Assembly (NCBI GenBank): GCA_965207445.1
Contig: CBDBLX010000002.1
Coordinates: 2,007,849 to 2,071,848, forward strand
Direction: 5' to 3'
DNA length: 64,000 nt
Origin: Nitrosopumilus sp.
GTDB taxonomy: Archaea; Thermoproteota; Nitrososphaeria; Nitrososphaerales; Nitrosopumilaceae
Shown here: positions 52,373 to 58,193 of the stretch, one piece after another
Numbering within the stretch: position 1 is the first letter of the stretch
How the letters are laid out: each line of letters opens with the position of its first letter
The notes under the pieces: generated by a model
Databases searched by the model: none
The model's input: only the letters and a program-made list of their open reading frames with translations
What the model was told of the DNA's origin: nothing
Made by a program: the position numbers and the translations under genes

Positions 52373-53260
52373 TCAAAACAATGGCATGTGAAACGCAGCA
52401 TCCAACACTACTGCTGCAAATATTATAGTGAGATAAGGTGCAGTCACCTTGTATGCTTTCCATGCAAACTCAGATGTAGGAGTCTTTGTGAGTTTGTAGT
52501 GATAAATGAGCATTAGTCCACCAGATATAGCAGCAATTACAAAATATACCAATCCCATACCTGCGGGGATAAATGATAGTGTGAATGAAAACGGTACGAG
52601 TATGATGGTGTTTGCAAGTATGTAGCGAGATGTCTTTTGCATTCCTATTACAACAGGGAGCATTGGAACATTTGCTTGTGCATATTCGTCTTTTATCTTC
52701 ATTGCAAGACACCAAAAGTGAGAAGGCGTCCATACAAACACCAAAAATCCGACCAAAAATCCAAGTAAATCCATGCTACCAGTAGCCCCTGCCCATCCTG
52801 CCCATGCAGCAGCACTACCTGCAATTCCACCAATTACTATATTTGATGTGTTGAGTCTTTTTAGCCACACTGTGTATATTATTACATACGAAAAAATCCC
52901 AAGCGATATGAATGCAGCAGATACAGGATTTAATGCAAAATATCCATATATAACAGAAACACAACTGACTGCCATACCATATACCAGCACTGTAGACGGT
53001 GACATGCGTCCTGCTGGAATGGGTCGTTTACGCGTACGGTCCATCATAGAGTCAATGTCGCGATCATAATAGTGATTCAATGCACTAGAACCAGCAGAAG
53101 CAAGAGAGCCTGCAATAATAATATGAATATAGTGTATATAATCTAGATCTGGTGCGCCATCGACGAGTTTGCTAGCACCATACATGGATGCAACAGCAGT
53201 TATAACTAGTAAAATTACTATTCGAGGCTTTGAGACTTCTACTATATCACGTAATGTCAT
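52373..53260 (-). CDS. cyoE: Heme o synthase (protoheme IX farnesyltransferase)
   Basis: KPRI, DRDIDSMMDRTRKRPIP, WTPSHFW. Confidence 0.93.
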   Translation of the reverse strand: MTLRDIVEVSKPRIVILLVITAVASMYGASKLVDGAPDLDYIHYIHIIIAGSLASAGSSALNHYYDRDIDSMMDRTRKRPIPAGRMSPSTVLVYGMAVSCVSVIYGYFALNPVSAAFISLGIFSYVIIYTVWLKRLNTSNIVIGGIAGSAAAWAGWAGATGSMDLLGFLVGFLVFVWTPSHFWCLAMKIKDEYAQANVPMLPVVIGMQKTSRYILANTIILVPFSFTLSFIPAGMGLVYFVIAAISGGLMLIYHYKLTKTPTSEFAWKAYKVTAPYLTIIFAAVVLDAAFHMPLF

Positions 53261-53361
53261 TATGCATATCACAGTATAATACAATTTATTTTCTTGTAAA
53301 TTAGTCAATACAGTCAATGATGAGGACTTATCTAGAGTGAGACCGATCAAAACCGAATGCT

Positions 53362-53471
53362 TACTGATATGATTAAAGATCCGATATTTTGATTGATATT
53401 TATCTCGAAGTTGAGCACATATTATGAATACAAAATATTAGAAAACTATCGGATCTTTAATGAAACTATTA
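53362..53471. mobile_element. MITE family C, copy 2
   Basis: TA...TA ends matching the IS630 TIR; TGCT on both flanks. Confidence 0.87.
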
Positions 53472-53503
53472 TGCTCAAGGACAAAGAAGGCATCAACATA
53501 CGC

Positions 53504-53662
53504 ATGAGTAAGAGACGTAACCCACAGGACAAAGTCGATGTTGTTAAAGTGATGCAGAAAAATGAACTAAACATACGAACAATAAGAGACGTAATCCACA
53601 GGACAAAGTCGATGTTGTTGTAGTATTTTTTATCACCCACATATCTGCAGTTGAGATATGCT
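53504..53662 (+). pseudogene. 5' part of an IS3-like OrfA helix-turn-helix transposase remnant, continued at about 56752-56866
   Basis: Removing IS630 and IS110 joins KRRNPQDKVDVVVVFFITHISAVEIC to CKHNVSPATFQDWR in frame. Confidence 0.6.
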
Positions 53663-55331
53663 TAGTAATTTCATTAAAGATCCGATAGTTTTTACAGGCG
53701 ATTTCGGCTAGGCAGGCGGGTACGGAGTGGAAAAATAGACGTAATTGGCACTATGTGTAGCAGATACCGTGTGGTAGCCGGAAGAGAGACGAGGAATTGA
53801 GGTGTATATCCAGTGGCATGTATTAAGTAATTTTTGATCAATTGGTTGAATTAATTTGACCTCGAGTGTCAAAAGGCGATGTGGCCATTAGTGTTTGATG
53901 AAAAACGAAAAAATGGTACATCGACTAGTACTCGTCGATGCCATATTTAACGACTCTGCAGGTAGATCGTCTTGCGGCATCGACGAGGTGCGTATTTTTT
54001 GAAGACAGTCTATGTAGAAAGAGGGGACGGGTTCATGCCCGACGTGTCCCTGGAGGATCTAAAAGCCGCCTACCGCAAAGAGCCTCCGGGCAAGTCCCGG
54101 GACAGACTGCAGGCGGCAGTTGGACGAAAAAAGGGCAAGAGTGAGTCTGTAATAGCCGCCCAGCTCGGACGCAGCCAGAGCGTCATATCCGAGTGGCTCA
54201 ACAGGCTACAATCAGAGGGCTTGGAGGGCAGATATGACCGCAAGAGCCCCGGCAGGCCGTGCAGACTCACAAAAGAACAACAAGAACAGGCAAAGGCCGA
54301 TCTGAGTAAAGAGCCGATGCAGTGCGGCTTTGAGCGTGGGACATGGACTGCCGCCTTGTTTGCATTGCATCTGGCAAACATTTTTGACGTCCAGTACACG
54401 TGGACCGGGGCCCTGGCGCTAGCTCACAGGATGGGCTTTTCAATAAGAATGCCCAGGCCAATTCACCACAAGTCTGCCAGTCCATTAGAAGAAATGTATT
54501 ATGTACACGACACAATACGCGCCATCATGGCGCACGCCCGTGCCGGCTACGAGGTGTTCTGTATGGATGCCGCTGCAATCACAAACTCGCCGTATGTCGC
54601 GCGCGGACTACATCTCCGAGGAGGCTCTGAGACTGTAAATGTCAACTTTTCAAAAACAAGCATGAAAATGCTGGGTGCACTCGGGGCCGGTACATGCCAC
54701 CTGCACTTTTGCGACAGTGCGAATACTGTAAACGTCATAAAACTGTTGGAGATGCTCCGAGAAAAGTACGGCAAGGTATTTGTCATATGTGACAATGCAT
54801 CTGCGCACAAGTCCAAAGACATCAAGCAGTATCTGGAACAGGCAAGAGGACAAGTCGCACTATGGTACTTGCCGCCATACACTCCTCAACACAATCCCAT
54901 AGAGATCCAATGGCGTGAGATAAAGCGCGCATTGGCAGGCAGATACTACAAGGGTGGTTTTCCAGAGATTCAAAAGTCCATATTACACATGATGGAAAAA
55001 GGCGAGGTAGGTACAGTCAGACTGCTAGAGTACATGCGCAATGCCATACAAGACGCAAAGAACAACGTGTTAATACCAGAACTCCGGGCTGCATGAACTG
55101 CATATTACGCGAACTAGGTAGGTCCGGGCGAGGCTGTGCGACACACAGATCACACTATGATCAGGACGGCTGCGCACATACCCTTTACCACGTCGAAATA
55201 CATGGCTAGCATGCCCCATGTCCATGGGAAAATCATGGAGCATGTATGGATTACAACATGGGGCCTGGCTGATTTCCCAATATATGATTATAAGAATGTC
55301 TAAAAACTATCGGAACTTTAATGAAATCACT
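53663..55331 (+). mobile_element. IS630-family insertion sequence
   Basis: About 31-bp TIRs AGTAATTTCATTAAAGATCCGATAGTTTTTA / TAAAAACTATCGGAACTTTAATGAAATCACT; the terminal A is displaced to 56747 by the IS110. Confidence 0.9.
53972..55096 (+). CDS. IS630-family transposase
   Basis: HTH, SPGRP, WT, CMD, CDNASAHK, LPPYTPQHNPIEIQW; alternative start 54035. Confidence 0.93.
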   Translation: MRHRRGAYFLKTVYVERGDGFMPDVSLEDLKAAYRKEPPGKSRDRLQAAVGRKKGKSESVIAAQLGRSQSVISEWLNRLQSEGLEGRYDRKSPGRPCRLTKEQQEQAKADLSKEPMQCGFERGTWTAALFALHLANIFDVQYTWTGALALAHRMGFSIRMPRPIHHKSASPLEEMYYVHDTIRAIMAHARAGYEVFCMDAAAITNSPYVARGLHLRGGSETVNVNFSKTSMKMLGALGAGTCHLHFCDSANTVNVIKLLEMLREKYGKVFVICDNASAHKSKDIKQYLEQARGQVALWYLPPYTPQHNPIEIQWREIKRALAGRYYKGGFPEIQKSILHMMEKGEVGTVRLLEYMRNAIQDAKNNVLIPELRAA

Positions 55332-55464
55332 CCTATGATAACTCCCGAGCGTACGAGTCGTACCTTTCCGATATTTCATCCGTCTCATGACTACCAAGTA
55401 CAGAGTGTAGTTTATAGCTAACGCTAAGGGTTAATCTGTACATATGCATACGCGGCAGATGTGC

Positions 55465-56559
55465 TTATGCCTTGTTCTGTCGTCGTCTCTCCAGCTTGGC
55501 CAATTTGCGCTTGTACAGATCTTCGTTGCGTGACTCGTAGCTAGTATTGTTTTGGAGCATGTGCCACATGATGTTCATCATTTTATTCGCGACTACGACA
55601 ACTGCAAGCGCATGCTTGTCTGCATGTCGTTTGCGTGCTGCTTCGTATGCGGCTTTCATTCTCAGATCATGTCTGGCCGCCACACTGGCAGCCTCACACA
55701 TTATCCAATTTACAAGCCGGTCTGTGCCTGCCTTTTTTATCTTTCCAAGACGCATCTCATTACCTGATTGTCTTATTGTAGGACAGAGCCCCGCCCATGA
55801 GATCATTTGTTTGGGAGTCTCAAACCTCGATATATCCGATATCTCAACTGCCAATAGTATGGCCGCATACGTGCCAATACCTGTCATACTGACAAGCAGT
55901 TTTGCATACTCATTTTGAGCTGCTTCGGCATCCAACTGTTTGTCAGTTTCTACAAGCTCGCTTGTGTAGTGTTTGATTTGTCTTACACACTGCTTTAGTA
56001 CAAAGTTATCCTGTGCATCACCGAGATTGAGAGTGTCCAGATAGAATAGTGCCTTGTGAGAGTACATGTTGGCCGCATGTGCGGCCTTGCCATGGGCATC
56101 AAGCAGGTTGTGTATTTGGTTTATCACCTTGGTTCTTGCCTGTACCAGACGTACATGCTGCCTCACAAGATTCCTAATTGCACGTATGTGCTTTGATGGA
56201 ATGTAACACTCTGGAATGGAATTCATCCTGAGTATCTGTGCTATCTTTTCTGCATCTATCTTGTCAGTCTTTTTTCCAGTCTTGTTAATCAGTGCCATCT
56301 TGTACGAATTGGCAAGCTTGATCGGAATGCCAACATCTTCAAACGCATTAATTGTCGTAATCCACAGGTTAGCTGTGGTCTCGCATGCTGCAGTGCATTT
56401 TCCCATCTTACCATACTTGTCAAGTATGGCGCGTGCACATTGTCTTGCATCCTCTTGCGTGTTAAAGTATTGCCCACGGTCGAGTACCTTGCCCCTATTG
56501 TTAACTACACAATAGTCACACTTTTTCTTGCTAATGTCTATACCTATGCTTATCTTCAT
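55465..56559 (-). CDS. IS110-family DEDD recombinase
   Basis: GIDISK, CETT, KTDKIDA, TGIG, AGLCPTIRQSG (catalytic Ser). Confidence 0.95.
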   Translation of the reverse strand: MKISIGIDISKKKCDYCVVNNRGKVLDRGQYFNTQEDARQCARAILDKYGKMGKCTAACETTANLWITTINAFEDVGIPIKLANSYKMALINKTGKKTDKIDAEKIAQILRMNSIPECYIPSKHIRAIRNLVRQHVRLVQARTKVINQIHNLLDAHGKAAHAANMYSHKALFYLDTLNLGDAQDNFVLKQCVRQIKHYTSELVETDKQLDAEAAQNEYAKLLVSMTGIGTYAAILLAVEISDISRFETPKQMISWAGLCPTIRQSGNEMRLGKIKKAGTDRLVNWIMCEAASVAARHDLRMKAAYEAARKRHADKHALAVVVVANKMMNIMWHMLQNNTSYESRNEDLYKRKLAKLERRRQNKA

Positions 56560-56591
56560 CCTTTGCTATCACCTCCTGGTCGGATGTCTTT

Positions 56592-56712
56592 TGATGAAAC
56601 GGAAGCTGCATACTCCTATCAGGGCTCGCAGCCCAATCATACAGCAGCTCGGATTGCCCCAATCTATGCAAAGGGAGCATTGTCCCATAGTGATTCAGGG
56701 GTCGATTCATCA
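56592..56712 (-). ncRNA. Bridge RNA (target- and donor-binding loops) of the IS110; transcript ends approximate
   Basis: Two stem/internal-loop/stem modules within a 7-bp basal stem; loop sequences match the reconstructed target and the circle junction. Confidence 0.8.
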
Positions 56713-56901
56713 CTACTAGTACGTAGAGGGGGTTATCATGTATTCTATGCTGTAAACACAACGTTTCACCTGCGACATTTCAGGACTGGAGGATAAATTC
56801 CGGCAGGGTTGTAGGCGGTCGCTGCCAGCCACAGAAACGCTGACAAGAACCATGTCGGCCTTGTAATCTTTCACTAACTTCTCTAAGACACGCATTATTA
56901 A

Positions 56902-57564
56902 TTACTCACACTTCTTTCGAACAATAATTTCCCACTGACTCCATGTGCCGGTTTTTGGTAAAGTTCTTGAATGAACTCTTTCATTTATGGAAATAAGGTC
57001 AAACTCTTTTAACATTTTAATGAGACCGTTACGAGTGAAAAATGACAGCACAAGCCCACATTTTGGACCGGATTCGTACCGTATAGTAATCCCAAATTCT
57101 GTAGTAGATAAAATCGTATGTTCGTGATAAATGGTGGTATTTGATGAATTTATGCGCAAGAAGAATAACCCACCTTTGACAAGTAACTCCTTGACTTTGG
57201 TAAAATTTGCTCGTATTGAATCAAATGTGCCATGTTGAAACACTTGAATTGCAATAAGATAATCAAATGGCTTTTGAGCATTGTAGTGTTCAAATGCAGT
57301 ACATACTAAACGTCCTTCAAGACCAGGTTTCTTTACTAAAAGTTGATTTATGGCTACCATAGAGACATCTATTCCCGTTAAATTCAATCCGTCTTCATAA
57401 AGAGGTATAAAATTACGCCCGTTGCCACACCCCACATACAACCCACATCCACGAAGGGGGGCATATTTTTTGATGTCATAAATAAAATCCACAGATTTGT
57501 CCGACTCATACCTACCAAGTGTATACTCAGTATTCCACCGTTTGGTTAACAGTGGCGGCATCAT
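56902..57564 (-). CDS. Class I SAM-dependent methyltransferase
   Basis: YVGCGNGRN, GIDVS, LVKGGLF. Confidence 0.85.
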   Translation of the reverse strand: MMPPLLTKRWNTEYTLGRYESDKSVDFIYDIKKYAPLRGCGLYVGCGNGRNFIPLYEDGLNLTGIDVSMVAINQLLVKKPGLEGRLVCTAFEHYNAQKPFDYLIAIQVFQHGTFDSIRANFTKVKELLVKGGLFFLRINSSNTTIYHEHTILSTTEFGITIRYESGPKCGLVLSFFTRNGLIKMLKEFDLISINERVHSRTLPKTGTWSQWEIIVRKKCE

Positions 57565-57641
57565 ATAAATAAAATATCAAGTGAGGTATAAATAAATAAC
57601 TTTTTCTATGCAATATTTACCAATCTACTAGGAGTTAATAG

Positions 57642-58193
57642 GTTTCTCCTGCAAACGCGGTTGGTGGCAATTAATACAGATTTGAACCGTTGCGGTCAAT
57701 CCGGACACGTAACTAGTATTTTGTCGCCACGTATGATAAACTTCAAACCCTCTGGGTTACCAAGTTTGGCAAGAACCGGTTTTGGAATGTACGAGTAACT
57801 GGTACCCCTTTTCACATTGTGGGTTATGGATACTTGGAATTCAGTGGCATTGGCAGGCCATTTAGTCATGTTTGTTGTTGTCAATCCAACGTTATAACGT
57901 CACTGACACCAGATTGCACAGATTCTGCACATTACACATCATATATACAAACACTCTACATCTGTTTGTGTTTTGATGCCAAATCAAACTATCATTTTTG
58001 GCGTACAACTCAATTTCTTCAAGGTGAACCACCCTGTTTGTCTTTTTGATACCAACTCTAACTAATTCCTATTCCAAACTATCGTCACAGTCACGCAATA
58101 AAGTACTAAAAACTTACACTTTTTCAGCCTCAAATACCAAATTCAGATAAAAAGTTCATATAAACACCGATCAACCGCGTTTGCAAGATAATA
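57642..58193. mobile_element. Non-autonomous cassette with IS6-like ends, copy 2
   Basis: Near-duplicate of 42917-43476; TIR tips eroded. Confidence 0.75.
57696..57884 (-). CDS. AbrB/MazE-like small DNA-binding protein (cassette passenger)
   Basis: Protein identical to 42970-43158. Confidence 0.6.
   Translation of the reverse strand: MTTTNMTKWPANATEFQVSITHNVKRGTSYSYIPKPVLAKLGNPEGLKFIIRGDKILVTCPD

Follow-up and report, generated by a model that had tools for sequence, protein, structure and literature searches.

In the 64,000-nucleotide (nt) stretch of Nitrosopumilus DNA analysed here (the window), positions 55332-56746 are, with high confidence, an intact and probably mobile RNA-guided insertion sequence of the IS110 family with IS1111-type ends, residing in an archaeon of the Nitrosopumilaceae. 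The evidence consists of complementarity between two predicted RNA loops and the flanks and ends of the element, covariation of guides with flanks and of paired stem positions, an intact recombinase gene with conserved catalytic motifs, and a legible order of insertion into another transposon. An earlier note on this DNA, made from the letters alone, had proposed an archaeal IS110-family element whose bridge or seek RNA specifies both its target and its own ends; domain hits, RNA structure and guide covariation support that proposal, and the relatives that we located lie in Nitrosopumilaceae records, in line with the archaeal host it had named. The element and its boundaries are as follows.

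55332..56746, minus strand: whole insertion sequence, 1,415 base pairs (bp) including one copy of the CT core; IS110 family; the sense strand is the minus strand
55330..55331, no strand: core dinucleotide CT at the left junction, second copy at 56745-56746; read directly, with CT beside all three copies
55465..56559, minus strand: transposase/recombinase, 364 amino acids (aa), intact frame, DEDD
56728..56739, minus strand: left subterminal inverted repeat ATGATAACCCCC, read directly; preceded by the 7-nt extension AGAATAC; conserved in relatives
55335..55346, plus strand: right subterminal inverted repeat ATGATAACTCCC (plus strand), 3-nt extension outward; 11/12 identical to the left repeat

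Excision of 55332-56746 yields the empty site GAAATCA-CT-ATGCTG, and the joined ends of the element read TGTATT-CT-CCTAT, both just as the earlier note had given them. Exactly the same ends delimit three full copies in the genome of origin (A, the copy in the window, B and C, at 100, 99, and 97% identity), which are accompanied by fragments. In all three copies the CT is identical at both junctions and no target duplication is present, a trait of the IS110 family; beyond the right repeat, the 3-nt extension is AGG on the sense strand. The 364-aa protein matched Pfam PF01548 (97 bits; cut-off 29) and PF02371 (74 bits; cut-off 21.3), with both the DEDD RuvC-like N-terminal and the Transposase_20 C-terminal domains present, as well as the NCBIfam equivalog NF033542, "IS110 family RNA-guided transposase" (232 bits; cut-off 140). 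The transposases of IS621 and ISCro4 aligned weakly over most of its length (E = 2e-8 and 4e-11). Across 27 homologues the motifs IGIDISK, ACETT, KTDKIDA, and RQSG were kept, and D8, E60, D99, D102, and S265-G266, within motifs that align to ISCro4, were invariant or near-invariant. We take D8, E60, D99, D102, and S265 to be the catalytic residues, an assignment by analogy with IS621.

Both RNA loops are encoded in the 187-nt left-end leader upstream of the transposase gene. A closing helix encloses two arms, in each of which an internal loop separates an outer from an inner stem.

56591..56715, minus strand: predicted bridge/seek RNA core, 130 bits with covariance model R1; closing helix 56711-56703 with 56601-56593, two internal-loop arms inside
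56687..56697, minus strand: target loop, 5' arm; guide AAUCACU (56695-56689) equals the plus-strand left flank AATCA-CT; C>U in copy B
56661..56672, minus strand: target loop, 3' arm; guide GCAUAG (56669-56664) is the reverse complement of CT-ATGC
56635..56643, minus strand: donor loop, 5' arm (UGUAUGAUU); UGUAU (56643-56639) pairs with ATACA of the left end
56610..56621, minus strand: donor loop, 3' arm; AUAGGAG (56619-56613) corresponds to the right-end extension AT-AGG plus the core

On the minus strand, loop 1 reads CCCC (56701-56698), UGAAUCACUAU, GGGA .. UCCC, UUUGCAUAGAUU, GGGG, and its two guides match the flanks AATCA-CT-ATGC at 11 of 11 target positions; the base A that follows the GCAUAG guide also matches the first base of the element. 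Loop 2 reads GAGCUGC, UGUAUGAUU, GGGCU GCG AGCCC, UGAUAGGAGUAU, GCAGCUU. Its right guide, AUAGGAG, is the reverse complement of CT-CCTAT (7/7), and its left guide is partial, with UGUAU matching TGTAT of TGTATT-CT and the following three bases mismatched. The earlier note had described the two loops in these same terms, and its coordinates and counts were reproduced.

The leader and the protein both have a wide family. Approximately 78 transposase relatives at 46-100% identity were found, the named ones labelled Thaumarchaeota or Nitrososphaerota. The regions upstream of their genes can be aligned throughout; the stems are conserved and the loop-1 arms hypervariable. When a 28-pair, two-loop structure was imposed on 26 aligned relatives, 95% of cells were paired and 11 of the 28 pairs showed compensatory changes; none of 500 shuffles reached the observed values, slid controls gave 30-49%, and RNAalifold independently recovered most of the helices. 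Compensatory changes across relatives this divergent require selection on the structure. The alignment-derived covariance model R1 matched six places in the same genome and, across the family, 27 of 151 genomes, spread over 11 of 27 genera; a single genome had up to 23 matches (the genome of origin and one weak hit in the unpublished G077 are counted).

The covariation between guides and targets, a check that the earlier note had called for together with the covariance model, was seen in the 3' arm of the target loop. Across 27 distinct guides, on average 3.96 of the 5 core-adjacent bases of this arm were the same as in the left flank, compared with 1.51 after permutation (0/10,000), and the core matched in 26 of the 27. 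These guide-flank counts omit 14 of 61 model hits that had no recognisable left repeat as well as L062, L141, and L126, which had bad boundaries; right ends were omitted if they lacked AGG/AGA or fell outside 1,250-1,500 bp. Most relatives have a TG core, and in the 5' arm of several of them the core is paired by G-U wobble. The donor loop covaried with the element ends as well: its 3' arm followed the right-end extension (AGG/AGA, AG/TG) in 7 of 8 distinct combinations, and its 5' arm followed the left-end extension (AATAC/AACAC/AAGAC/AAAGC) in 15 of 21.

Several observations qualify, or weigh against, the reading of an intact, RNA-guided element. For the 5' arm of the target loop, 10 distinct guides with a trustworthy right end gave 3.1 of 5 Watson-Crick pairs with the right flank compared with 1.55 after permutation (1/10,000), but with a register shifted one base 3' for the TG-core elements that was chosen after the data had been seen; with one uniform register the result was not significant (1,649/10,000). 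L053 and L057 failed on this side, and L059 and L132 fitted only with another offset. The single-sequence fold of the leader was not more stable than shuffled sequences (z = -0.02), and its minimum-energy structure departs partly from the consensus; the structure is supported because of covariation, not folding energy. Neither a circle junction nor an empty site appeared in the Logan contigs of four runs, three of them from one sample, and contigs cannot show rare circles. Among the sequencing runs listed as containing this stretch, none was an RNA run.

Those contigs broke at the variable loops and carried alternative flanks. Contigs from the three runs of one sample also joined 56449 to 56707, skipping the RNA and the start of the gene, with a shorter side of 28 nt; this joint probably reflects an artefact of the assembly graph. 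Scanning metagenomes for the right-end sequence gave 0 matches. In the Rfam scan of 53000-58000 at E up to 1, the leader had no match, and the only hit in that interval was a weak C/D-box sR5-like one at 53314-53368 (19 bits against a gathering threshold of 40; E = 0.4).

We consider it extremely improbable that the loop-flank matches arose by chance, or through copying of flanking DNA into the leader, with no RNA guide involved. Nothing specific speaks for such an origin beyond the unremarkable single-sequence fold energy and the lack of an Rfam family. The 11-of-11 match falls at positions homologous to known guide loops, the family-wide permutations described above almost never reached the observed values, and compensatory guide-flank changes occur within one genome, as the three full copies illustrate. 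In window orientation, their empty sites are AATCA-CT-ATGC (A), ATCTT-CT-ATGC (B), and ATTTA-CT-ATAC (C). The copies differ at 53 of 1,415 columns, of which only 3 lie within the 187-nt leader and two of these in the loop-1 guides. In copy C, a C>U change gives the guide GUAUAG and brings back full agreement with the right half of its own site, ATAC; in copy B, a C>U change gives AAUUACU, a one-position better match to its own flank. The remaining mismatches of copies B and C to their flanks number 2-3 and fall on the 5' arm side, and the majority guide among the three copies is that of copy A. A truncated relative, L004 (74% identical), carries the guide CAACAG beside the flank CAAC-AG and has kept all stems and the donor loop.

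The surroundings of the other copies are less uniform. Copy C is surrounded by unique DNA, and its site departs from its own guide at 2 of 11 positions. One flank of copy B (L002, G000 C2:1275112-1276526) is antisense IS630 transposase sequence; the other falls inside an unrelated ~150-bp repeat with 11 copies, whose uninterrupted copies have TA at the core position. Copy B is therefore placed at a rearrangement joint. A history in which it entered the left tip of the neighbouring IS630 element and ~390 bp were subsequently lost was considered and dropped, because the expected duplication misfits and the right flank comes from another repeat. Further traces were seen in the same genome. L006 (G000 C2:529926-530251) is a 26-nt left-end stub followed by ATGC and abuts a different repeat of ~300 bp with more than 60 genome copies. 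At G000 C2:1088787-1088995, 440 bp away from an IS630 copy, another member of the family has left a decayed left end and a remnant of its RNA, and G000 C2:1500842-1502330 is a 31%-identical paralogue with an RNA-like leader that contains an internal duplication and a run of CTA repeats.

Such remnants bear on whether the element is a fossil, its leader conserved by recent descent alone and its guide-flank matches relics of old insertions. The gene of copy C is split by an 8-bp deletion, L004, L006, and C2:1088787-1088995 are truncated, and neither circle nor empty site was seen in contigs, all of which speak for a fossil. We nevertheless judge this explanation unlikely, given that the 364-aa frame is complete in copies A and B, which are 99% identical, that the catalytic motifs are kept in the 27 homologues, that compensatory stem changes extend across relatives 46-78% identical in the transposase, and that relatives reach up to 23 copies per genome.

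The intact, guided element in the window was found inserted at the end of an IS630-family transposon, for which two features are relevant.

53663..55331 (last base now at 56747), plus strand: IS630-family element; transposase 53972-55096; NF033545, 179 bits; DDE_3
53659-53662 and 56748-56751: 4-bp duplications TGCT around the IS630-family element, intact once the insert is removed

At least 11 near-full copies of the IS630-family element were counted in the genome. It has terminal repeats of ~31 bp and the ends TAGTRATTTCATT...AATGAAATCACTA, and its protein has the DDE_3 and N-terminal helix-turn-helix domains of that family. Classic IS630 duplications are TA; here, identical 4-bp repeats (TGCT, TGCC, CCCA, CGCG, TGCT, CCCA), not TA, flank 6 of the 10 two-ended copies. 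The flanks suggest a TGCN/NGCA preference. Because the TGCT duplication is intact around the IS630-family element and the insert together, the IS630-family element arrived before the IS110-family element. The 11-nt target comprises the outermost 8 nt of the IS630 right repeat (the AATCACTA tip) and TGC of the duplicated TGCT, exactly the composite site that the earlier note had recognised. Dozens of copies of a miniature element of ~117 bp with IS630-like terminal repeats were also noticed (G000 C2:1274368-1275000; e.g., C2:353234-353350), three of them inside the degenerate IS630 element by copy B.

We lean slightly towards IS630-type ends being the main natural target of this lineage. A competing explanation, to which we give a substantial probability though short of even, keeps the RNA guide but makes the IS630 end incidental: the guide would recognise a short motif of approximately A-T-N-N-A-CT-AT-R-C with tolerated mismatches, and IS630 ends would be enriched merely by their repetition, with no evolved tie. 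Consistent with an incidental end, copies B and C lie elsewhere with their mismatches on the 5' arm side, five perfect IS630-type ends stay empty, the flanking duplicated site, not the IS630 element proper, supplies 3 of the 11 target bases, and the closest relatives, L057 and L084 (75-78% identity), have unrelated guides. Only one of three full copies lies at an IS630 end, or one of five junction sets when the truncated L004 and L006 are included. On the other side, the perfect 11-mer occurs unoccupied 7 times compared with 1.84 expected from base composition, and 5 of these 7 are IS630-type ends, or 6 of 8 perfect sites once the occupied one is counted. Moreover, the majority guide is that of copy A; the variant guide AAUUACU of copy B equals the other left repeat-tip variant of IS630, AATTACT, found in 5 of 10 IS630 copies; and the 3' arm fits the TGC with which 6 of 15 IS630 right flanks begin. 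The claim of the earlier note that the element is programmed against IS630 ends thus stands in part: the guides, the distribution of empty perfect sites and the tip variant agree with it, as do two other lineages inserted in IS5-like repeats, but copies B and C lie elsewhere and five ends are empty. That note had regarded other copies in unrelated sites as contrary evidence, and some was found: copy B occupies a rearrangement joint, and the DNA around copy C is unique.

Those two lineages, found inside the terminal repeats of other transposons, also argue against an incidental IS630 end. In G041, the relatives L039, L047, and L055 are inserted in TAGTCTGT-TG-CACAAC. An IS5-like element (DDE_Tnp_1) has this sequence as positions 1-16 of its terminal repeat; of its 9 full copies, which have 8-bp duplications, 3 have one end interrupted by the relative. 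In G080, TAGYCTGT-TG-CATAAC is the site at 7 of the 11 loci examined, where the guides are CCUGUUG and GUUAUGCA; the flanks there carry the repeat that bounds an IS5-like element or its 80-bp derivative. Another copy in that genome, L170, has different guides that match an unrelated site. The G065 lineages, whose right ends were not detected, are left unscored. The 80-bp element, whose 17-bp IS5-like terminal repeats read TAGCCTGTTGCAYAACC, was hit repeatedly by the G080 relative (L162, L165, L166). Insertion into the terminal repeats of foreign transposons therefore recurs in at least two further lineages, and the G041 and G080 cases make a hyperparasitic habit more plausible for the clade than copy A alone would. 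They suggest that, in this archaeal clade, the target has repeatedly shifted to terminal repeats of co-resident transposons.

Partridge and Hall are said to have described in 2003 a bacterial counterpart, IS4321/IS5075, which targets the terminal repeat of another transposon. Like IS4321/IS5075, the present element is a DEDD element with subterminal repeats and a single-orientation insertion into a foreign terminal repeat; the relatives in G041 and G080 insert in exactly that way, within the repeat itself. It differs in its archaeal host, in an RNA region that lies upstream (the guide RNA region of the bacterial elements being downstream), in its IS630-family victim, and in a site made up of the repeat tip and 3 nt of flanking DNA.

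For assignment to a subgroup, we used criteria from excerpts of Durrant 2024 (PMC11208160) and Siddiquee 2024 (PMC11187229). In the excerpts of the latter, the hallmarks of IS1111 are subterminal repeats of 11-13 bp, extensions of 7 bp on the left and 3 bp on the right, and a top-strand complement located 5' of a bottom-strand match; an upstream RNA is the IS110-type position, with few exceptions among IS1111, such as ISMtsp17 (PMC11187229). The element has 12-nt subterminal repeats (11/12), extensions of 7 nt on the left and 3 nt on the right, and a guide order in which the 5' arm is complementary and the 3' arm identical to the sense strand, whereas its non-coding region lies upstream, not downstream, of the transposase. 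On sequence criteria, it is therefore classed as IS1111-type by its ends and guide order, with a left-end RNA, which refines the plain IS110 label of the earlier note at the level of the subgroup and leaves the family unchanged. Plasmid tblastn matches to the transposase were 22-31% identical and mostly annotated just "IS110 family transposase".

Measured against systems with described guide RNAs, and as far as the excerpts of the two papers go, the element resembles the IS1111 seekRNA elements ISEc11, ISKpn4, and ISPa11 in its subterminal repeats, extensions and guide order, but its RNA region is upstream, as in ISEc21 and ISMtsp17, and its target differs (PMC11187229). With IS621 and ISCro4 (PMC11208160; PDB 8wt6, 9t56) it shares two internal loops, target first and donor second, an RNA in the left end, a CT core within the pairings, and one extra base past the core that fits the post-exchange partner. 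It differs from them in its low sequence similarity, in arms reversed relative to the gene sense strand, in long subterminal repeats, and in the TG core of most relatives, often with G-U wobble in the 5' arm. Targeting of other insertion sequences has been described for ISEc21 (IS110 type), which targets IS3-family transposase genes (PMC11187229). Both the mechanism and the targeting of other mobile elements are thus already known from bacteria, and no new mechanism is involved. A limited literature search, covering papers other than the element lists in the supplements of Durrant 2024 and Siddiquee 2024, found none that describes RNAs of the bridge or seek kind in Nitrosopumilaceae.

By analogy with IS621, ISEc11, and ISEc21, the leader would be transcribed, the element would form a circle and the recombinase would be catalytically active. 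The element would exit as a circle in which the right end (..CATAGG) meets the left end (AG-AATACATG..), and an RNA of ~120 nt, encoded between the left end and the start codon, would bind the DEDD/Ser recombinase. Loop 2 of this RNA would pair with both strands of the circle junction and loop 1 with both strands of the target, AAUCACU with AGTGATT and GCAUAG with CTATGC, and strand exchange would take place at the CT core, with no duplication made. A conserved motif near the right end may be relevant to expression from such a circle.

55412..55426, minus strand: TATA-like AGCGYNAGCTATAAA box at the right end (minus strand AGCGTTAGCTATAAA), invariant in 10/10 aligned right ends

In the ten aligned right ends, the AGCGYNAGCTATAAA box is located 80-93 nt from the end of the element. 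Judged by its sequence, it is a candidate archaeal TATA promoter from which, in a circle, transcription could run over the junction and on to the RNA and the gene. At the opposite end, a conserved GGAGGTG (56570-56576) precedes the start codon and is complementary to part of the left subterminal repeat (56728-56733); RNAalifold pairs the two, and this modelled pairing may serve translational control.

As a broader and more tentative proposal, which we hold to be possible but somewhat doubtful, a clade of bridge-RNA elements in Nitrosopumilaceae may repeatedly retune the target loop to the terminal repeats of co-resident DDE transposons (IS630-like here, IS5-like and miniature elements in two other genera), acting as RNA-guided hyperparasites that split or cap transposon ends, and may be switched on by a right-end promoter that acts only across the circle junction. 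The element offers a well-defined archaeal case of RNA-guided recombination. It comes with a covariance model and dozens of guide-target pairs from nature, natural retargeting is visible inside a single genome, and all this provides raw material for testing archaeal bridge recombinases and for studying how G-U wobble is used at the core. The element also extends predation of one insertion sequence on the ends of another from bacterial plasmids to marine ammonia oxidisers with transposon-crowded genomes, and it bears on how transposon load is shaped in the genomes of Nitrosopumilaceae.

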